IMG/VR virus record: IMGVR_UViG_2778261180_000005
DNA length: 36,121 nt
Direction: 5' to 3' (one strand)
From: a virus
Taxonomy: Duplodnaviria; Heunggongvirae; Uroviricota; Caudoviricetes
Positions 2,763 through 36,121 of this stretch are shown here, piece after piece (position 1 is the stretch's first letter; each line of letters opens with the position of its first letter). The position numbers and the translations under genes were made by a program. The notes under the pieces were generated by a model. It was not told the origin of the DNA and ran no database searches. It worked only from the letters and a program-made list of their open reading frames with translations.

Positions 2763-3761
2763 TTAGAGAGCCTCTAAAGGGCTTAAATCGAGTTCTAAGT
2801 TTTCCGGTGTTAAATCAGCTAACGGTGCATTCATCCACTGCGATAAATCTCGTTCTATGTCTTCATCACTAATGTAGTTGTTCAGATTGATTGCGTTGGT
2901 ATCATCAAAATACATTGGCTTAGATGGGTTGGTGTGGATGTATTCATTGATGAATGATTTAACATCTTTCAGCTTGCTAATCGGTAGCGTTTCTGTGAAT
3001 CCGCTATTCATTACCTTACGTGGGATTTTCTTGCCCTGAATATTCTTTTTAATCCCCATTTCTAAATCACCAGCTTTCCATCCAATGTTAAACAAATGTG
3101 AGCATTCAAAGGTGATTTTCTCGCTGGTGTGCTTCTGGTGTTCTCTTACCCGTTGCATCGGATCTTTGCGAGTGGTAATTCCATATTTGAAAAACTTCTC
3201 GCCAACACGAATTAGATAAAAGTGCATAGGGCGCTGTGCAAACTTGTTTCTGATAACCTGTTTTCTACCATTCTGAATTGATTTAAGTACACCCCTAACC
3301 AAAGGGCATGTTAACCCGCCTTGTCTGCGGTTATTGTGTAAATCACCTTTCTTGTGAATCTTTCCGTGGCACTTACAACGAAGAATTAGTTTAGTGTCAA
3401 CACCCTGATAAGGTTCAGCCAGACCTAACACATCCCACCCTATCGGCTTGTAGAACTTGCGAGCGTTTTCTAAGTGTTCTTCTTCGGTAAATCTAAACTT
3501 CTTCTTAGGCGGTGATACTCTATCTTTGCCAGTAAACTGACCAGTTAGAACATGACTAATACATGGCGTTTTAACCTTTCCGTTAACTTCTATGCAAACT
3601 TTGGTGTTCTGGAATGGTTTCTTTACAGGAAGCACAAAACCACTGTATAACCATCCATGCGCTTGACAAACTTTAATGATTCTGGTTTCATATTCGACCG
3701 GAGGGGTCGCACGTTTGCTTTTTGCGGTAAATTCGATATCCTTTGCTAAAGTAGTATTCAT
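2763..3761 (-). CDS. Zn-finger plus T5orf172/GIY-YIG-like domain protein (homing-endonuclease-like), 332 aa
   Basis: Start moved to ATG at 3761 (SD GAGGA 7 nt upstream); CxxC..CxxC-type cluster (CKCHGK..TCPLV) followed by FYLIRVGEKFFKYGITTRKDPMQRVREH. Confidence 0.65.
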   Translation of the reverse strand: MNTTLAKDIEFTAKSKRATPPVEYETRIIKVCQAHGWLYSGFVLPVKKPFQNTKVCIEVNGKVKTPCISHVLTGQFTGKDRVSPPKKKFRFTEEEHLENARKFYKPIGWDVLGLAEPYQGVDTKLILRCKCHGKIHKKGDLHNNRRQGGLTCPLVRGVLKSIQNGRKQVIRNKFAQRPMHFYLIRVGEKFFKYGITTRKDPMQRVREHQKHTSEKITFECSHLFNIGWKAGDLEMGIKKNIQGKKIPRKVMNSGFTETLPISKLKDVKSFINEYIHTNPSKPMYFDDTNAINLNNYISDEDIERDLSQWMNAPLADLTPENLELDLSPLEAL

Positions 3762-3796
3762 ATTAGTGTCCTCGAAAATAATAAGTTCACTACTAT

Positions 3797-4249
3797 TTAT
3801 TGAGAAAAATTTGTTGTAATGGTTGAAGACCACGGGCATGAGTAGTAACCACGACCGCCACCGATCAAGCAAATGGTCGGACGGAAGCCAGTAAGATCGC
3901 AAAATGAATCAGTGTCATGTGCTGGGGAACGATGCTCTGCTTCGTTAGAGAAAATGTTGGCTACCGGAGATTCCACTTTAACTTCCGGTGCTTCTTCAAC
4001 ATCTGACTTAACTTCTTCGACCACTGGTTCAACTGCCGGAGATTCTTCTTTTGTTTCTTCAATGACGATCTCAGGTTCTTTCATTGCTTCAACCAGAGAC
4101 GGATCAACTTCGTCGAATACCACTTTATCATCTGCGGTGTCTGCTGCCAGAATAAGATCGTTAATACTGGTTCCTTCTGCCGGAGTTTCTTCTTCCATTT
4201 CGGAAGCCAGTTTAGTTAATTCGGTTTCTACGAACTCGATCATCAACAT
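3797..4249 (-). CDS. acidic hypothetical protein (150 aa)
   Basis: Glu/Asp-rich ORF; the opposite-strand ORF 3873..4277 is Ser/Thr-rich as expected for an antisense artefact; weak RBS. Confidence 0.4.
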   Translation of the reverse strand: MLMIEFVETELTKLASEMEEETPAEGTSINDLILAADTADDKVVFDEVDPSLVEAMKEPEIVIEETKEESPAVEPVVEEVKSDVEEAPEVKVESPVANIFSNEAEHRSPAHDTDSFCDLTGFRPTICLIGGGRGYYSCPWSSTITTNFSQ

Positions 4250-4289
4250 TAAAGGTAATGCCTATAAGATAAATTAAGTGAGGTTTTTT

Positions 4290-4871
4290 ATGATGAATGA
4301 TGTGCGCAAAGCATGTGATATCCCGTTCAATTTTATCCGCACCAAAAATGGCAAAGCGCCATCACATCCAATTGATATGGAAGCAAGGATCGTGACCCGT
4401 ATTGAAAACGAGGGTTTACCCTTGATTTATCACGGATTCAAAGGTGAGTATAAATCAATCAATAGCCGTATTGTGCTAGAGTGTGAAAGCTGCGCAAGAA
4501 TCAGAGATATAACAGCAAAACAATTCTTACATAATCCTACTGTGTGCCCGTGTAATCGTAGCAAATATGACAACAAATATAAAAATGGGCAACCAGTATT
4601 ATATGTTATGCGGTGTGGTGATGTGGGTAAGGTTGGAGTAAGTCACAATGTGTTGACGAGAAAACATAAGCTAAGATGCCAGAATAAGATGAAATTTGAT
4701 ATCATCGAGACTTTCGAATTTCAAGACGAAAAAGACGCATACGCGGCAGAATTGTTTATCAAGAAAAACCTAGTAAAAGGTGATTTTGATATTAAAGAAG
4801 GTGCTACAGAAACGTTTGTTTATAATGAAAAAATGGTCAGAAATATAGCTAACGTCGCCAGCATATTCTAA
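4290..4871 (+). CDS. Zn-finger plus T5orf172/GIY-YIG-like domain protein, paralog of 2763..3761 (193 aa)
   Basis: ATG at 4290 with AGTGAGG SD; CESC..CPC cluster followed by LYVMRCGDVGKVGVSHNVLTRKHKL. Confidence 0.65.
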   Translation: MMNDVRKACDIPFNFIRTKNGKAPSHPIDMEARIVTRIENEGLPLIYHGFKGEYKSINSRIVLECESCARIRDITAKQFLHNPTVCPCNRSKYDNKYKNGQPVLYVMRCGDVGKVGVSHNVLTRKHKLRCQNKMKFDIIETFEFQDEKDAYAAELFIKKNLVKGDFDIKEGATETFVYNEKMVRNIANVASIF

Positions 4872-26539: not shown

Positions 26540-28444
26540 TTAGAACGATGTTACCCAACTACGGCCTCTATTTGGACGTCTGGCGATGTTTTTACGTTGT
26601 GGTCGTGTGATTGGCTTAGTTTCTTCGATTTTCTCGTCAGATTGCGATTTAGGAGCTTTTACGGGTTCTTCGACAACACGGTTTAAGCTGTCTTTCATTG
26701 CAATGAGTTTATCCCATGACATTTTTGAAAGGACGTAGCGAGAAGCCGCTGTAGCATACACGGCGCAGTCGAGCGCCTCGTTCCTAACGCCTGGGTTCTT
26801 TACCCATCTCACGCCAGTAGTAGTACGCTTGACAGATTCACTTAAAAGCTGATCGAGATAATCATCAGGAACGGTGTCTGATATTTCTAAGCCAATATGA
26901 GGATTATCTTTCAGGTTCCTAGCCAACATTTCACGAAATGCAGTTTTACCCACATTAACACCCAACATAAGCAATTCATGACCACCTGTGCGGGTAGGTT
27001 TAACCGGAATGATCGGAGCGTTACCAGCAGAACTACCTTTGATAGCGTGTAAGTTCTTCCACTTGCCGCAAATACGGTATCCAGCTTGAGTGAATCGACC
27101 GTTCGATGTATCAAGGAAGCTGGCGAGCATAGGAACACGATCACCCGATACAGTAGTAAATTTGGTTTTATGGAAGTTGATTAATCTATCCCATACAGGG
27201 GATTCATATCGTTCACAGTTATGATCGTAAAAGCTGCGATGATCCAGAATATAAATCTTATCCTTTGCCACGCCCATGATTGTAGTTTCTGCGCGATCTA
27301 ATTGCTGGTCGGTACCCGCACACAAGAAAATCACGTCATCAGGGATATTCTCGATAGAAACATCTGTTTTTAGTTGTTCCAGTTCATTTGCTTCTACTGC
27401 CGTGTCCTGATCGTCGTATACCTTGCCTAACACGGTGTTATAAAATGATTGTAAATCAAAGGATTGCCACGCATGGCTAAAATCAACCACACAAGCGCGG
27501 ATCGTGCTGAAAGGTGAATACAGACGGCTGATCCAGAATCCTGCTACCTCACTTTCACGGGTTGCTCTCCACTCGCCTTGTGCTACTGCCCTGATTCGTT
27601 CCCCTTCGGTCCATGCGTTCTTACAGTGGGGGCAAATATAACGAGCGGTATCAGGATCGGGTAAGTTCTTACCATCGATGTTACGCCATTCAAATTGAAC
27701 GTTTTCCCACTCGATCACCTGGTGTTCCCCGCAATGAGGACACGGAACAAAAAACATACGCATATCACTTGATAACCATTGCTGGTTAATGCTTCCGAGC
27801 TTACTGGTCGGGGTACTGGATACGACTAATCGGCCTTCATCGCCAAAGGTAGTTAAACGGTTAGCAGCCAGTGCCACCGGATCACCTTCTTCTGAGGCTG
27901 TAGCAGCATCGATTTCGTCAAGCAATCCAACCTTTGCGGTCTTACCGCGTAGGGTTGATGGACTAGTAAGCGATACCATATAAAGGAAGTGGTTTGATTT
28001 GAGCTGGAGCTGATTGTTGTTATTAACAGAATTGCGATCATTCTTGTCTGTAACCACGTCTTTTAATGCATCACATGCTTCGATAGACGGTCGGATCTTA
28101 CCCGCGAGATATTGAGACATTTCTTTAGCGGTTGATTGTCCGATAATCATATTGCATGGATCGTTAGCCATCTGGTTAAACAGGATACCGTTTAGGATGG
28201 TAGTTTTTCCGATCTGCGCACTGGTCATCAGTACATACTTTTTCTTATTCTCAAGGAAAGGAGCATCAATCATGCCTTTCTGGAATGACAGCAATTTAAC
28301 TTTATCCCCCGCTTGAGGACCATCTACCAGCACCATATTCGCTTCGCACCATTCAGAAGGAAGGAGTTTAGGCGGTGGCGTAATATATTTGGCTGCATTT
28401 TTGAGAATCTTTTTTAATTTGGCCTTATTAGAAATCAGTTTCAT
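26540..28444 (-). CDS. terminase large subunit, lambda gpA family (634 aa)
   Basis: Walker A (SAQIGKTT); gpA-like motifs [30 protein letters not shown]; GAGGGT SD. Confidence 0.9.
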
Positions 28445-28529: not shown

Positions 28530-29132
28530 ATGCTAATTAATCAGCAACAAAGAGATGAATTAGAATTAGCCTTGTCTTGTACCGATCATGAATATCGTTT
28601 ACCAGTTAAGCATAAGCATTTAAAAACCGACTACACAACATCTGGCTTTAGTCGTGAGGAAGCGAAAGAGATTTTAATAGAGTTTTACCGCGATAATGGT
28701 TATACAGACGTTCACAACTTCTTTAAGAAGCATAGAACATCACATACAGAGTTTCGGAGAGTCCGAGATTGGTTTGATTTTGATATCAAGCGTTATTATC
28801 GAGTGGATGACGGTCCTATCTATCGGTTGCAGTGGACACCGATCAGGGAAGTGTTGAAACAGAAGAGATTGAATCACGCAATTACACGCTATCGTAACGA
28901 GGCTTTCAAGAAAGGCTATGGTGATACAAGGGAACTATTCGTTGAACTCGCTAACGTGCGTTATAGCCACTATTACAACGATCCTAAAGGGTTCTTTGAA
29001 GTGCTTCGCAAGGTTGATATAAGTCGGGGTACATACTATTCACGGTTGAAGAAGTACGGGATTAAGGCAGAGTTCTTTATGAGTATTGACGATGGAGAAC
29101 TTTTTCCGATAAAATGTAAGTCCTCTAAATAA
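28530..29132 (+). CDS. hypothetical protein with C-terminal HTH (200 aa)
   Basis: AAAGGGGGG SD; C-terminal [17 protein letters not shown] is homologous to the HTH of the 77-aa and 60-aa proteins. Confidence 0.6.
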
Positions 29133-29160
29133 AGGTGAACATTCACTTTAATTTGGAGAA

Positions 29161-29394
29161 ATGACTATGACTACTAAAGCTACTCGCGGTCGTCCTTGCC
29201 GTTTTAACGCTGAACAGATGGCTGATATTGCCTACGCTTACTATACAGCGGATCGTGGTAAGGAAGCGAAAGAACAGATTCTTAGTGAACATGGGATCTC
29301 AATCGCCCAATTCTATAAGAATATGAAGAAGTTAGACATTAAATTCTATGTTCAGATCGGTGATGGTCAGATCGTAGAAGCAACAGGTTTTTGA
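29161..29394 (+). CDS. small HTH protein (77 aa), terminase-small-subunit N-domain-like
   Basis: RGRPCRFNAEQ...GISIAQFYKNMKKLDIK; the ATG at 29167 has better SD spacing than 29161. Confidence 0.6.
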   Translation: MTMTTKATRGRPCRFNAEQMADIAYAYYTADRGKEAKEQILSEHGISIAQFYKNMKKLDIKFYVQIGDGQIVEATGF

Positions 29395-30743: not shown

Positions 30744-30772
30744 ATCATAAAAAAGTCATAAAATTTTGTCAA
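30744..30772 (-). promoter_or_regulatory. sigma70 promoter (minus strand)
   Basis: TTGACA, 17-nt spacer, TATGAT when read on the minus strand. Confidence 0.6.
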
Positions 30773-31260: not shown

Positions 31261-31281
31261 AGTGGAAATCCTCTAAAAGAA

Positions 31282-31303
31282 AGTGAATCAAAGTAAGTTC
31301 ACT
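31282..31303. promoter_or_regulatory. palindromic operator-like site
   Basis: AGTGAA-N10-TTCACT between the putative promoter and RBS of the 150-aa gene. Confidence 0.4.
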
Positions 31304-31464
31304 ATTATTTATAACGAGAAATTTTTGTCTAATTTGAAAGGAATTGGTATTCAGTCGGCTTCGCCTCCTTCATAGATTTTGATTAAATCATCATCAAAAC
31401 GAAGAAGTATCTTTAGAATATAAGAATCTTTCTTTTGGAGAAATAATAATCCGGAAGCAATTTA

Positions 31465-31493
31465 GCAACCGAAGGTTGCAATCCCGAAGGGAT
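31465..31493. other. two adjacent short hairpins with GAAG loops
   Basis: GCAACC gaag GTTGC and ATCCC gaa GGGAT. Confidence 0.4.
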
Positions 31494-31522
31494 ACCAATA
31501 CCTTTCATGATCATTAAAGTGA

Positions 31523-31750
31523 TCTAGAATCATCTAGTAACCAGTTAACTACTATTATCTTCAAAGTGATTATTACTATCTTTCTAGAATCAGTTAGTAA
31601 CTAGTTTAAAATCCCTTTCAAGAAAATCCTTTCAGAAGTGATTCTCGATGCCACGCAGTGGCGTCGCAGACGTTTGAGAGTGAGCGAAGCGAGCGAGCAA
31701 ACTAGTTAATTCCTTCTAAGACCATCTAGTATCATCTAGTTTAAATTAGT
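31523..31750. repeat. CTAG-rich direct repeats (about 27 bp, 3 copies)
   Basis: TCTAGAATCATCTAGTAACCAGTTAAC at 31523, TCTAGAATCAGTTAGTAACTAGTTTAA at 31583, related copy at 31723; TCTAGAA also occurs at 29537. Confidence 0.6.
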
Positions 31751-31943
31751 GTTACTAGAAGTAATTGGTTAGCGCTTCGCGCAGTCGGGCTACGCCCTCC
31801 TAATATCTTTTTGGTTATTTGTTGTTTTTGGTTTTACACATGAGCGTAGCGAATGTGTTATATAATATCTATGCACGCCCGATCCCCCGCTTTTGCCCCT
31901 CACTAAGTTAATGTTTTATAAAGAGTTTTTCTCACCAATCCTT

Positions 31944-32131
31944 TTCGGGGGCAAATTTCAGGGGCAAAAATTAGATTTTCAGGGGCAATTATTGGCATTT
32001 CAGGGGCAAAAATGAGGGGCAAAATCACTGTTTCCCAGAATTTCAGGGGCAAAAATAGTGGGTTTCAGGGGCAAAAATGGGATAGTGAAATCTAGGGGAT
32101 TTTGGTTCAGGGGCAAAATTCAGGGGCAAAT
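31944..32131. repeat. iteron array, about 10 copies of TTCAGGGGCAAAA
   Basis: Copies begin at about 31944, 31957, 31978, 31999, 32013, 32041, 32063, 32092 (variant), 32106 and 32119; spacing is mostly 13-22 bp. Confidence 0.85.
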
Positions 32132-32135
32132 TTCA

Positions 32136-32185
32136 TAGTGTAGGGCTAGTGTAGGTTTGAAAATCCTTTGTTGACACTGTGTAGG
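32136..32185. promoter_or_regulatory. TAGTGTAGG direct repeats (2 copies plus a TGTGTAGG inside the promoter spacer)
   Basis: Copies at 32136..32144 and 32147..32155; related copy at 32178..32185. Confidence 0.5.
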
Positions 32186-32199
32186 ATCGGTGGTATACT
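32171..32199 (+). promoter_or_regulatory. near-consensus sigma70 promoter
   Basis: TTGACA (32171-32176), 17-nt spacer, TATACT (32194-32199). Confidence 0.75.
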
Positions 32200-32591
32200 T
32201 GAAAATTCGAGATAAATATGTTATAATATTTGTATTGAAAGTGAAAATTTACCGATTTTCCTTCCTATTGTTATCACTGTGTTAAATTGTTATATGTCTG
32301 TGAAGATTTGGATCTGAGAGAAAATCTTGTAACAAATCTTTACAATTCATAGCTCAATTAATGCTCACCGCTTTAGCAAAAAGTGCTATGCCTTTTTCTA
32401 AATTGATTGAATAAACATCAATTTGGTTAATTCGTGTTCTTCTCTTTAGCAATTCGTGCTGCGGTTTAACACATTTAACACGCCTGATAACATCCAAATA
32501 ACATTTTAACATATCTCTGTTCTAAATACATATATAAGAGATAAATGTGAGGGGTTGAAAAATTAAAAACAATCCCCATATAAATAATAGT

Positions 32592-32612
32592 GAGCGGTTA
32601 ACGCTCTTTTTT
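32592..32612 (+). terminator. intrinsic terminator/attenuator ending a ~400-nt untranslated transcript
   Basis: GAGCG gttaa CGCTC followed by TTTTTT. Confidence 0.55.
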
Positions 32613-32647
32613 AAGAAATCATTAATCCAGATTTAGGAGGATTCAAG

Positions 32648-32830
32648 ATGGCACGACCTGTTAAGTTCACTCGTGAAATCGTTTTAGAAATGGCAAAGCG
32701 TTATTTTGAACTGACGCCTGATGTAGTGATTGGTGAATGGTTTAAAGGTGAAGGTATTGATCAATCAACCTTCCACAAACTCTTAAAGAAGTATGACATT
32801 AAAGTAAAGATAACCGCAGAGGTTTACTGA
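32648..32830 (+). CDS. small HTH protein (60 aa), paralog of the 77-aa protein
   Basis: Strong SD TAGGAGGA at 7 nt; MARPVKFTRE...GIDQSTFHKLLKKYDIK. Confidence 0.7.
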   Translation: MARPVKFTREIVLEMAKRYFELTPDVVIGEWFKGEGIDQSTFHKLLKKYDIKVKITAEVY

Positions 32831-32871
32831 TACTTTGACTGAGAATTATATGATGGCTTTAAAAATAAAAA

Positions 32872-32900
32872 AGCCCCCTTGCGGCAACAAGGAGGCTTTT
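32872..32900. terminator. intrinsic terminator (leaky/bidirectional)
   Basis: AGCCCCCTTG cggcaa CAAGGAGGCT followed by TTTT; an A-run lies upstream. Confidence 0.65.
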
Positions 32901-32942: not shown

Positions 32943-33884
32943 ATGTTATTTTCCGCTAACTTTTTCACTAACGAAGTAACCAACGCTAAAGCAGTTATCA
33001 AATTTGGCACCGAAGCAAACAAGAAGATTCAGCCGAAAGTTGTTGCTCATGTTTCCTTTGCGCAGCAGAAATCCGCTTTCGCTGGCTTTAAAGCACATCG
33101 TGAAGCACTGATCGCGGCTGGCTTTGGTGTTGACGGTAAACTGCCTAACGGCATTCGTAAAGCAATCGACCGCGTTAAACCTGCTAAAGACGTTGCAGTA
33201 GACCACATCGTTACTTTTACCGTTAAGAACTCTTCTGAACTGTTCCACCTGGTTATTGCTGGTGATACTGCTATCGTTTCCGCTCCTAACATGGATTTTC
33301 AGGATACCGCTGATTGCCAGATCACCTTCGGTCGTCGTAAAGAAGTTACCGGAAAAGCTAAACTGAACTTCACTAAATCCGGCAATCCTTACTTTGCTGT
33401 TTTCTTTAACAGCCACGCTACCGAAAAAGAAGTTGTAGAACTGGTTGCTTATGAAGGTGAAGAGAAAGAACGTATTGAATCTTGCGAAGCATTTCTGGAA
33501 CTGGAAGCACAGGTGAATGCTGTTTCTCCGGTTGTTGAAGATCGCTTTGCTGCACTGGAAGCACAGATCGCAGAACTGAAAGCTGCACTGGAAGAAAAAG
33601 ACCAGATTATCGAAGCACAGAAAGCTGAGATTGAAGAACTGAAAGCTAAAGAAGTTGCTCCGGTAGCAGTAGTTGAAAACGCGGCTGATGAGGCCGCAAA
33701 TGATGAAGTAGAAGTGAAAATCGATGTGATGCGTGATCCGATGGCTGCACTGCAATTACTTCGTTCTTTTAAGGGCAAATCTCATTTTTCTAGTGATGTA
33801 GAAGATGAGGAAGAAGAACAGAAACGCAATGCTGCAATGCTTCATGATGAAATGTACGGTACTAACTTTTCTTACTGCCAATAA
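32943..33884 (+). CDS. hypothetical coiled-coil protein with strongly host-optimised codon usage (313 aa)
   Basis: SD AGGAG; codons dominated by CTG, CGT, GGT, GAA, AAA and CCG, unlike the rest of the element; central coiled coil and acidic C-terminus. Confidence 0.8.
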   Translation: MLFSANFFTNEVTNAKAVIKFGTEANKKIQPKVVAHVSFAQQKSAFAGFKAHREALIAAGFGVDGKLPNGIRKAIDRVKPAKDVAVDHIVTFTVKNSSELFHLVIAGDTAIVSAPNMDFQDTADCQITFGRRKEVTGKAKLNFTKSGNPYFAVFFNSHATEKEVVELVAYEGEEKERIESCEAFLELEAQVNAVSPVVEDRFAALEAQIAELKAALEEKDQIIEAQKAEIEELKAKEVAPVAVVENAADEAANDEVEVKIDVMRDPMAALQLLRSFKGKSHFSSDVEDEEEEQKRNAAMLHDEMYGTNFSYCQ

Positions 33885-34547: not shown

Positions 34548-35105
34548 TTAAGACACATCAAATTCATCGTCTTCTTCTGGTTCTTGTTCTTCCGGTTCAT
34601 CCATTAATGGTAATTCTTCTTCCTCGTCTTCTCCCAAATCTGCATTTTCGAACAAGTCCCCTACTTCATTTAAACGACGCTCGATAATCTCCCTTAGCTT
34701 ATTCTTTAATGTTTTCTGGTCAGTGGCAGATTCGAGAATTTCTAAAGCGTCGATTGTGGCGATCTGCAAAATAGTCTGCTTCACTTTCCCGCAGTATTCC
34801 GCTAGCTCCTGCTCCACATAACCGACGGGAATCAGGAGATTCATTTTTTCCTGGTTCTCTCGTTCGATGGCGTCCGCTAATGCTCTTTCTCTGCGGAGAC
34901 GTTCTTGATCAATCGCTTCTTTGATTGAAGTTTGTTTAAGTGGGTTAATTACGTTCTTTAGCACCCAATCGCAACCTTCCTTTGCTGGTACACGACGCGT
35001 GTGGGTGTTCATCGGTAGTCCCCTTTCTAACCATCGCTTACCGCCACCATTCAATGTATAGCCATATAAACGGGAAATTTCTGTAAGGGTTAATTCTTCT
35101 TTCAT
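34548..35105 (-). CDS. Nu1-like winged-HTH protein; candidate terminase small subunit (or other DNA-binding factor), 185 aa
   Basis: GGAGGA SD; N-terminal LTLTEISRLYGYT...WLERGLP resembles the Nu1/MerR-type wHTH; coiled coil; acidic C-terminal tail. Confidence 0.5.
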   Translation of the reverse strand: MKEELTLTEISRLYGYTLNGGGKRWLERGLPMNTHTRRVPAKEGCDWVLKNVINPLKQTSIKEAIDQERLRRERALADAIERENQEKMNLLIPVGYVEQELAEYCGKVKQTILQIATIDALEILESATDQKTLKNKLREIIERRLNEVGDLFENADLGEDEEEELPLMDEPEEQEPEEDDEFDVS

Positions 35106-35770: not shown

Positions 35771-36121
35771 TTATTGGGGTTTACAACATTTAGGTTTGCC
35801 AATTCGCCTGGCTAACTCTTGCTGAGTGATTTCTGACTGTAAAAAAGCATTTAACAGCAATACTTTAGAGGCGACGCTCAAAGGTACTTCAATAAAGTGA
35901 TCATGACTATTTAATGGCGAAGGTAACGGGATAAGCTCGTTATCTTCAAAATAAAAATCAAATGCGGTCAGTAAAGCATCTTTTGCCGCTTCCATCGCTT
36001 CAGCGACAGTTTCGCCCTGCGTCAACGCTTCAGGGATATCCACAAAAGAAACCATATAACCGCCTTCCGGCGCGGGTGTAAGAGTGACGGGATAACGCAT
36101 AATTTCGACTGTCTCTCGCAT
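35771..36121 (-). CDS. hicB: HicB-like antitoxin, apparently truncated at its 3' end
   Basis: MRYPVTLTPAPEGGYMVSFVDIPEALTQGETVAEA... N-domain with enterobacterial-like codon usage; HTH begins (SEITQQELARRIGKPK) but the ORF ends CCKPQ* five codons later, at the composition switch. Confidence 0.7.
   Translation of the reverse strand: MRETVEIMRYPVTLTPAPEGGYMVSFVDIPEALTQGETVAEAMEAAKDALLTAFDFYFEDNELIPLPSPLNSHDHFIEVPLSVASKVLLLNAFLQSEITQQELARRIGKPKCCKPQ

Follow-up and report, generated by a model that had tools for sequence, protein, structure and literature searches.

A conserved promoter-to-terminator leader beside an iteron array is a candidate attenuator in an Escherichia coli prophage family

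The DNA analysed here (36,121 nt; IMG/VR record IMGVR_UViG_2778261180_000005; hereafter the window) comprises almost the whole of a ~35-kb Escherichia coli prophage. Between an array of iterons and the genes for a putative helix-turn-helix (HTH) protein of 60 amino acids (aa) and an initiator-like protein of 313 aa, it carries an AT-rich untranslated leader that begins at two overlapping promoters and ends in a terminator-like hairpin. The leader is probably a real regulatory feature with a conserved layout, and we tentatively propose that it is the structured attenuating leader of a probable replication-control operon. The original prediction for this region had offered a non-coding RNA, an attenuator leader or an unwinding element; the part common to all three, a functional untranslated unit from promoter to terminator, is supported by the relatives of the window, whereas the three cannot be separated from sequence. 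The features of the region are as follows.

31880..32135, plus strand: class G iteron array with about nine direct copies and one inverted copy of TTCAGGGGCAAAA
32137-32160: two copies of AGTGTAGG, directly after the iteron array
32171-32199, plus strand: promoter P1, TTGACA-17-TATACT with TG, 11/12, inferred transcription start site (TSS) ~32205
32199-32227, plus strand: promoter P2, TTGAAA-17-TATAAT with TG, 11/12, inferred TSS ~32234
32205..32612, plus strand: untranslated AT-rich leader, ~408 nt from P1 and 379 nt from P2
32268..32301, plus strand: 5' arm of a long inverted repeat, with TGTTAT/TGTTAA motifs
32374..32388, plus strand: palindrome TAGCAaaaagTGCTA, a possible operator or RNA hairpin
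32399..32477, plus strand: core shared with the type-2 leaders of relatives, holding TCTTCTCTTTAGCAATTCGTGCT (32438-32460) and the palindrome TAGCAattcgTGCTG (32447-32461)
32466..32511, plus strand: 3' arm of the long inverted repeat, with five WTAACA motifs ~10 nt apart
32545..32581, plus strand: hairpin A, AUGUG-A-GGGGUUG, a 12-nt A/U loop, CAAUCCC-CAUAU
32592-32612, plus strand: intrinsic-terminator-like hairpin, GAGCG-GTTAA-CGCTC followed by six T
32635-32640, plus strand: ribosome-binding site (RBS), AGGAGG
32648-32830, plus strand: 60-aa gene for the putative small HTH protein, with at least five alleles (53-80% identity)
32869..32900: G+C-rich hairpin of 13-14 bp between the 60-aa and 313-aa genes, -15.9 kcal/mol, z -3.4
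32943..33884, plus strand: gene of the 313-aa protein, in which the N-domain (~175 aa) is variable, a coiled coil is present and the C-terminal tail is acidic

The layout was compared across 78 related loci from IMG/VR contigs, metagenome contigs and E. coli genomes. At many of these loci a different sequence fills the interval between the end of the repeat array and the middle of the 60-aa gene, with the plan unchanged. Four leader versions, namely type 1 (that of the window), type 2, L046 and L066, run from a promoter through a leader of 250-400 nt to a short hairpin and the RBS of the 60-aa gene. The versions other than type 1, together with a truncated locus, are listed below.

Type 2 (15 distinct sequences, ~31 complete genomes): promoter TTGACA-17-TATACT and a ~290-nt leader free of open reading frames (ORFs)
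L046: 12/12 promoter, ~245 nt, then AGAGCG-TTT-CGCTCT with six T; 313-aa homologue 50% identical
L066: 10/12 promoter, ~355 nt, then GCCGTC-ACCC-GACGGC with an interrupted T tract ATTTAATTTG
L045: cut upstream; hairpin with six T retained before the RBS

The type-2 leader ends in AGAGC-GAAAA-GCTCT with six T, followed by the RBS and a diverged 60-aa gene, and the interrupted tract of L066 reads AUUUAAUUUG as RNA. Types 1 and 2 have only four things in common: the P1 promoter, an island of sequence that forms hairpin A, a core of ~80 nt around TCTTCTCTTTAGCAATTCGTGCT, and the terminal hairpin with the following TTTTTTAAGA. Retention of one layout in relatives unrelated in sequence argues that the leader is probably a real control device for the downstream genes.

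The consensus promoter predicted at 32171..32199 was confirmed as an 11/12 site with a TG extension that is kept in relatives, being present in 16 of 17 distinct type-1 sequences and homologous to the type-2 promoter TTGACA(A)CTGT..AGGAT..TATACT. The prediction of a single promoter had overlooked P2, which overlaps the -10 hexamer of P1 and reads TTGACA-17-TATAAT (12/12) in most type-1 relatives. Both sites have the -35 (TTGACA) and -10 (TATAAT) elements at the 16-18 bp spacing of sigma-70 promoters, and the TATAAT of P2 falls at about +17 to +22 of the P1 transcript, with no counterpart in type 2. No other plus-strand site in the 36 kb reaches 11/12. The entire window holds three 11/12 sites (1.26 ± 1.09 in shuffles), the third of which lies on the minus strand at 30772..30744. 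This last site (TTGACA-17-TATGAT) points leftward toward the genes for a 51-aa protein and a Rha-family protein, and together with P1/P2 it forms a pair of strong divergent promoters at a distance of 1.4 kb.

The DNA between promoter and gene is as AT-rich as had been claimed, the G+C content of 32206-32612 being 29.7% compared to 41.7% for the whole window. The repeated TTAACA-like motifs were also substantiated. WTAACA/TGTTAW occurs nine times in the leader, where 1.3 ± 1.1 copies are expected and none of 2000 shuffles reaches nine. Five direct WTAACA copies lie at 32466-32511, spaced 9, 12, 11 and 8 nt, and three inverted TGTTAW copies lie at 32269-32293, so that the two groups are the two arms of the long imperfect inverted repeat. 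The palindromes at 32374 and 32447, 73 bp apart, are the only ones in the leader with zero or one mismatch. An exact 20-mer from the leader core, TCTCTTTAGCAATTCGTGCT, recurs in an unrelated 47-kb phage (L028, L039 and L044); it is probably a coincidence, since it overlaps the stop codon of a nuclease-like gene there and the structure model finds no match.

The statement that the region contains no convincing ORF is accurate for the plus strand, on which no conserved ORF was found among the relatives compared, and fails in part for the minus strand. There, most type-1 relatives keep the frame 32354..32512 and its upstream continuation free of stops over 85-101 codons, even at 30% G+C. A small protein gene (32512..32354, 52 aa in the window and up to 92 aa in relatives) might thus fill the leader, and a hand count gave roughly 8 synonymous and 8 non-synonymous differences. 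However, the frame is broken by a stop codon in the window and by a frameshift in L010/L001, and type 2, whose leaders carry 1- and 2-nt indels, has no equivalent (33 open codons, no ATG/GTG start). No convincing RBS precedes the frame, RefSeq annotates nothing at this place, and the amino-acid similarity to type 2 just mirrors the common nucleotide core. We therefore regard such a gene as extremely improbable.

Secondary structure and covariance across homologues, a check suggested with the original prediction, yielded a folding excess on the plus strand and modest covariation in type 2. The minimum free energy of the window leader is -99.1 kcal/mol on the plus strand, compared to -70.4 ± 4.9 for shuffles (z -5.8), with z -3.1 on the minus strand. 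In the predicted fold the TGTTAW arm (32268-32301) pairs with the WTAACA arm (32466-32511), followed by hairpin A and the terminator. Hairpin A is the second island common to both types, located at the 3' end of the type-1 leader and at +13 of the type-2 transcript; the 71-nt 3' module (32545-32615) alone has a z of -4.1. Type-2 leaders fold with z -2.6 on the plus strand and -1.6 on the minus strand. Consensus folds are also more stable on the plus strand than on the minus strand, both in type 1 (-86.0 vs -74.4) and in type 2 (-51.8 vs -38.3).

Standard pairs make up 98.8% of the 1,005 cells of the type-2 consensus structure on the plus strand, compared to 84% when the same pairs are read on the minus strand, and the cells include 153 G.U vs 4 A.C. 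One-sided stem changes are mostly G.U-compatible on the plus strand (10 pairs vs 3). Double-sided changes were found in three pairs, including C124A with G247U (L042), which supports a long-range helix competing with a local terminator-like hairpin. The closing pair of an internal type-2 hairpin followed by U5 (AGCACUG-10 nt-CAGUGCU) is also compensated, and the overall covariation score was reached by 2 of 500 shuffles. A type-2 covariance model of the island-B domain matches type 1 with 28.5 bits (E 4e-4), where only the inner 8 helix pairs are kept, and finds no match in L046, L045 or L066. Taken together, the plus-strand structure signals are consistent yet modest.

The intrinsic terminator had been placed at 32592..32612, just before the RBS. 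Its location holds, and by sequence it has what is expected of an intrinsic terminator, with a 5-bp stem containing 4 G-C pairs, a 5-nt loop and U6; its predicted strength is weak rather than strong. The hairpin lies ~380-410 nt from the two TSSs and ends 35 nt ahead of the ATG at 32648. No promoter-like site of at least 9/12 was found between the terminator and this ATG, and the 313-aa gene is preceded by a 9/12 site only. Therefore, the 60-aa gene appears to depend on read-through. The second hairpin (32869..32900) is a strong terminator for the minus strand, with just four U on the plus strand.

We propose the following course of events, inferring that the transcript starts and stops at the predicted sites and that termination is partial. 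P1 and P2 would start transcription at ~32205 and ~32234, giving an untranslated RNA of ~380-410 nt that would fold into the long helix, hairpin A and the short terminator with U6. Most transcripts would stop at 32607-32612 and yield a structured non-coding RNA in abundance. Read-through transcripts would be the only visible mRNA for the 60-aa gene and, upon passing the second hairpin, would also serve the 313-aa gene. In this way very strong firing may be uncoupled from low output of the initiator-like protein, with read-through as a possible point of regulation, and firing away from the repeats may also help to open the origin. If the leader attenuates, this would explain how a consensus-strength promoter can stand before an initiator-like gene without runaway expression, and the terminator would offer a handle on how the phage switches replication on.

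Several points weigh against the attenuating leader. The TSSs, 3' ends and termination efficiency are all predictions, and no factor relieving termination was found. The terminal hairpins of the leaders are short (5-7 bp, -6.7 to -11 kcal/mol), and two of them alone fold no better than shuffles. The covariation in type 2 is modest, the sequences being 92% alike, and use of one alignment both to derive and to assess the structure inflates the plus-strand G.U count; in type 1 the leaders differ too little (nucleotide diversity, pi, 0.029) for covariation to be assessed. The core at 32265-32612 is conserved within type 1, at this pi of 0.029, and third codon positions have a pi of 0.035 in the 313-aa gene and 0.27 in the 60-aa gene; since the value for the core is not below that of the 313-aa third positions, extra constraint within the type is not evident. 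In addition, the palindrome TTGACAnnTGTCAA covers the -35 hexamer in the type-2 and L046 promoters, so that these promoters may be repressed rather than constitutive. This operator-like palindrome lies at 3335-3348 in L012 and at 3166-3179 in L046, and type 1 does not have it.

The remaining points against it concern DNA-level control. The WTAACA spacing of ~10 nt, near one helical turn, and the TAGCA-N5-TGCTA palindromes with their perfect 5-bp arms fit protein binding to DNA equally well. L066 keeps the island-A sequence without its 5' pairing arm, and in L060 the same sequence lies upstream of the promoter. The WTAACA array, the palindromes and the island CAATCCCCATAT might accordingly bind proteins that repress, roadblock or loop, with the RNA fold as a by-product, and the better-than-shuffled folding of both strands agrees with this. 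However, the plus strand outfolds the minus strand in both leader types, the one-sided changes in type 2 favour G.U pairing on the plus strand, and a hairpin followed by U6 is meaningful only as RNA. No allele of a neighbouring protein tracks the leader type either. Control at the DNA level is therefore judged very unlikely.

The leader lies beside the iterons, as the original prediction had it, and the class of these repeats goes with that of the N-domain in the 313-aa-type protein encoded downstream. Class G iterons are direct repeats in helical phase at ~21 nt, as in iteron origins, with start-to-start spacings of 21, 21, 43, 22 and 42 nt and some closer pairs 13 nt apart. Three repeat classes occupy the same site upstream of the promoter: TTCAGGGGCAAAA (G), AGTGTAGGTTT (T) and an ACGGGGA-type repeat (Y). 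The repeat class equals the N-domain class of the protein in 72/72 locus records, some of which overlap on the same contigs; the loci include L024, L027, L034 and L046, and the proteins range from 313 to 337 aa. In L046 a variant repeat, GAGGGGCAAAAAT, accompanies a protein whose identity is 50% overall and 55% in the N-domain. Common to the proteins of all three classes are a coiled coil, an acidic region and C-terminal tails that resemble one another.

Searches with the 313-aa protein against Pfam, PHROGs, NCBIfam and PDB returned coiled-coil noise only. A word-indexed search found near-identical E. coli copies only, an exhaustive search of 1.84 billion proteins found 12 representatives of the family, and a single-sequence AlphaFold model was unusable (mean confidence, pLDDT, 46). 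Based on co-variation and context, the 313-aa protein most likely binds the repeats as a replication initiator, and the repeats with their flanking AT-rich DNA are probably the phage origin. The repeat and N-domain give the impression of an exchangeable pair that sets specificity, and the protein family has no known relatives. The module around the leader would provide a new family of initiator-like proteins with three swappable repeat specificities.

At the sequence level this module has most of the hallmarks of an iteron origin: phased repeats, an adjacent gene whose specificity is predicted to match them through the class co-variation, and adjoining A+T-rich DNA. The G+C content is 25-32% in 80-nt windows from 32161 to 32600, directly behind the iterons, and this is the most AT-rich DNA of the region; in type 2 a very AT-rich spacer of 200 bp separates the iterons from the promoter. 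These features also suit an origin-activating or priming transcription, in which the act of transcribing matters, either through negative supercoils that enter the repeats and AT-rich DNA behind the polymerase or because the AT-rich leader retains an R-loop or primer. The leader DNA would then be the unwinding element and the terminator would merely confine the flux. The promoters face away from the iterons, an orientation that raises negative superhelicity behind the polymerase, and the phased iterons track the adjacent initiator-like gene. Lambda requires transcriptional activation, and iteron origins normally adjoin A+T-rich DNA and DnaA sites (PMC5043065). L046 has three perfect DnaA boxes TTATCCACA within 170 bp (3692-3700, 3712-3720 and 3851-3859), between the 60-aa gene and the 313-aa homologue.

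However, no DnaA box within one mismatch is present at 31-34 kb of the window. The leader has a GC skew of -0.02, without an excess of G over C that would favour an R-loop, and an unwinding element needs neither strand-biased pairing, nor a hairpin with U6, nor islands of sequence. Furthermore, the replication role of the repeats and the 313-aa protein is itself only a candidate one. As the function of the leader, origin activation is unlikely in our view, although it is compatible with an attenuating leader and the two are not mutually exclusive. Base-composition skew across the window tracks gene orientation and marks no origin. An 8/9 match to the DnaA box, TTAATCCACA, follows the leader terminator in many versions.

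The way in which the leader versions are exchanged bears on another possibility. Leader type, 60-aa allele and the allele of the leftward 150-aa gene assort independently, leader type doing so with respect to every neighbouring gene, and no partner gene tracking the leader type was found among the neighbours within ~4 kb. Such independent reassortment is expected where effector and target share one module, as in an autonomous regulatory RNA. In this reading the terminated leader, or a piece processed from it such as the 3' module, would act in trans on nascent leaders or other RNAs, setting immunity or copy number like the P4 CI RNA, or read-through like IsrK, with leader types as specificity groups. 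P4 and IsrK are precedents for trans action of such leaders (PMC4825925). Complementary boxes recur in the leaders: type 2 has three CACUG and two CAGUG, and type 1 has three TGUUAW and five WUAACA. Made up of hairpin A, an AU-rich linker and the terminator, the 71-nt 3' module is small-RNA-like. No repressor, antiterminator or further replication gene was recognised by library scans of the window or the complete DEC5A prophage. E. coli UTME-9 (NZ_CP157110.1) hosts two prophages of the family, at 2805571 and 3413316, which differ in leader type (1 and 2) and in repeat class (G and T).

On the other side, Rfam, which holds models for the class of prophage leader and immunity RNAs including C4 and IsrK, gave no match to any leader version: nothing reached the gathering score in the window or five relatives, and hits with E up to 10 were chance-level only. 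When the leader was scanned for duplexes with 37 start regions of the window, the result was -32.0, no better than shuffles (-28.6 ± 2.7), and no sign of processing was seen. BS74R-D (NZ_CP063332.1) may carry two type-1 copies, as two places match the type-1 leader, the second of which was not located. A regulatory RNA of this kind is distinctly unlikely. Its fullest form, an exchangeable RNA module that controls lysogeny or replication, whose terminated leader acts on its own nascent copies to set read-through and whose versions are immunity or incompatibility types reassorting against at least three iteron/initiator specificities, we likewise hold to be decidedly doubtful. If the RNA does act in trans, it would be a second, unrelated case of P4-style RNA immunity.

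By analogy, the leader unit resembles the lambda pR'-6S-tR', P4, IsrK and pT181/pIP501 leaders in the way it would work, and it is a member of none of these groups. In lambda, the strong promoter pR' gives a short untranslated transcript, the 6S RNA, that ends at the intrinsic terminator tR', and the downstream genes need read-through. The present unit likewise has a strong promoter, an untranslated leader and a terminator ahead of the genes it would control. Unlike at pR', the downstream genes encode small DNA-binding and initiator-like proteins instead of late functions, and the leader is twice as long as 6S RNA. A -10-like element after P1 is found in type 1 only, where it belongs to P2, and is absent from type 2. 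No Q-like protein was recognised, neither Q nor any other antiterminator family matching the window ORFs scanned (the 20 larger ones against Pfam and 18 against PHROGs) or the left-end genes of DEC5A.

In plasmids pT181 and pIP501/pAMbeta1, the rep mRNA has a long leader with a terminator just before the regulated coding region, and the control module includes a small HTH gene. The present module has the same long leader, terminator just upstream and small HTH gene, but its small gene lies downstream of the leader, whereas theirs lies upstream. No antisense promoter is conserved in the leader: type 1 has no minus-strand site of at least 9/12, and type 2 has only TTTATA-17-TATCAT (9/12).

The Q account of the lambda late unit is given in PMC4825925, as are the P4 and Gifsy-1 RNAs. 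The immunity leader of satellite phage P4 (CI RNA, with seqA/seqC) is untranslated, precedes replication genes and works by premature termination, with no protein repressor needed (PMC4825925). The leader studied here is similarly untranslated, precedes putative replication genes and contains repeated complementary boxes; it differs in having neither sequence nor covariance-model similarity to P4, nor a sign of a processed RNA. In Gifsy-1, the IsrK promoter gives a short RNA that ends at a Rho-independent terminator, and its read-through isoform is the downstream mRNA (PMC4825925). A short prophage RNA running to a terminator, with read-through as the proposed mRNA, would be the corresponding arrangement here, but the downstream genes are unrelated, Rfam finds no match and the leader is ~400 nt long and lies beside iterons.

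In iteron replicons an A+T-rich stretch and the gene of the cognate protein lie next to the phased repeats, which the promoter of that gene abuts (PMC5043065). Repeats, AT-rich DNA and a repeat-tracking protein gene are common to the present module and to such replicons (lambda ori/O, P1 RepA, F, pSC101 and R6K). In contrast to them, no known initiator is similar to the 313-aa protein, DnaA boxes are absent at 31-34 kb of the window, and the initiator-like gene is set apart from the promoter by a ~400-nt terminator-capped leader plus the 60-aa gene.

In this E. coli prophage family, which is widespread yet unstudied, the leader occupies what would be the point of control. The family is carried by about 58 of 5,426 complete genomes, enterotoxigenic and O55:H7 strains among them. 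Segment 31300-33000 itself is present in 57 of the 5,426 complete E. coli genomes, chromosomal every time. A megablast of the region against phage and plasmid collections gave no match, a protein scan and a 20-mer scan of species-representative genomes were both without a match, and a metagenome scan found five near-identical loci and nothing else. The large terminase subunit (TerL) is at most 45% identical to that of any deposited phage.

The first ~1 kb of the prophage lies outside the window, the left end of which carries the gene of a large serine recombinase (995-2689), and the right prophage junction falls within hicB. The lysis, tail and head genes are on the minus strand. Integration is in hicB for the window (35771-36121) and for the O55:H7 strain DEC5A, and in ycdX for strains KSC64 and ETEC1703, which indicates that two attachment sites are used within one phage family. 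Terminase and HTH-paralogue loci lie at 34548-35105 (minus strand), 26540-28444 (minus strand) and 28530-29394. The large-subunit gene and a gene resembling that of the small terminase subunit (phrog_57, E 6e-10) stand 6 kb apart and flank the repeat and leader module. The motif RPxKF...GI..S.F.KLLKKY.IK is common to the 60-aa protein, a 77-aa protein and the C-terminus of a 200-aa protein, which therefore look like paralogous small HTH domains. The genes at 2763-3902 and 4278-4871 both match the endonuclease family phrog_681, the latter also with a CapR homology domain; as they are missing from the otherwise collinear DEC5A prophage (L079), they are probably cargo, possibly a defence system.

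The leader region belongs to a 1.39-kb stretch without an annotated gene (31261-32647), bounded by the leftward 150-aa gene and the rightward 60-aa gene. A strongly self-complementary element of 183 nt occupies 31330-31512 (z -5.4 on the plus strand and -5.0 on the minus strand), with a closing stem of ~17 bp (GAAAGGAATTGGTAT / ATACCAATACCTTTC) and small GAAG-loop hairpins inside. A hairpin of the form CAGTCGG(G)C-loop-GCC(C)TCC occurs twice, at 31355-31371 and 31783-31802; in relatives its stem is constant and its loop varies (TTC, AAA, TAAA, TATC or ATA). Upstream of the iterons, the gene-free stretch also contains four TCTAGAATCATCTAGTA-like repeats (31523-31748) and short G+C-rich hairpins (31640-31700). 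In addition, a 28-nt inverted repeat with 79% complementarity and a core around ATAAATAATAGTGA links 31299-31326 (minus strand), at the promoter and 5' untranslated region of the leftward 150-aa gene, with 32566-32593 (plus strand), at the 3' end of the leader, and may be a site common to the two divergent genes.

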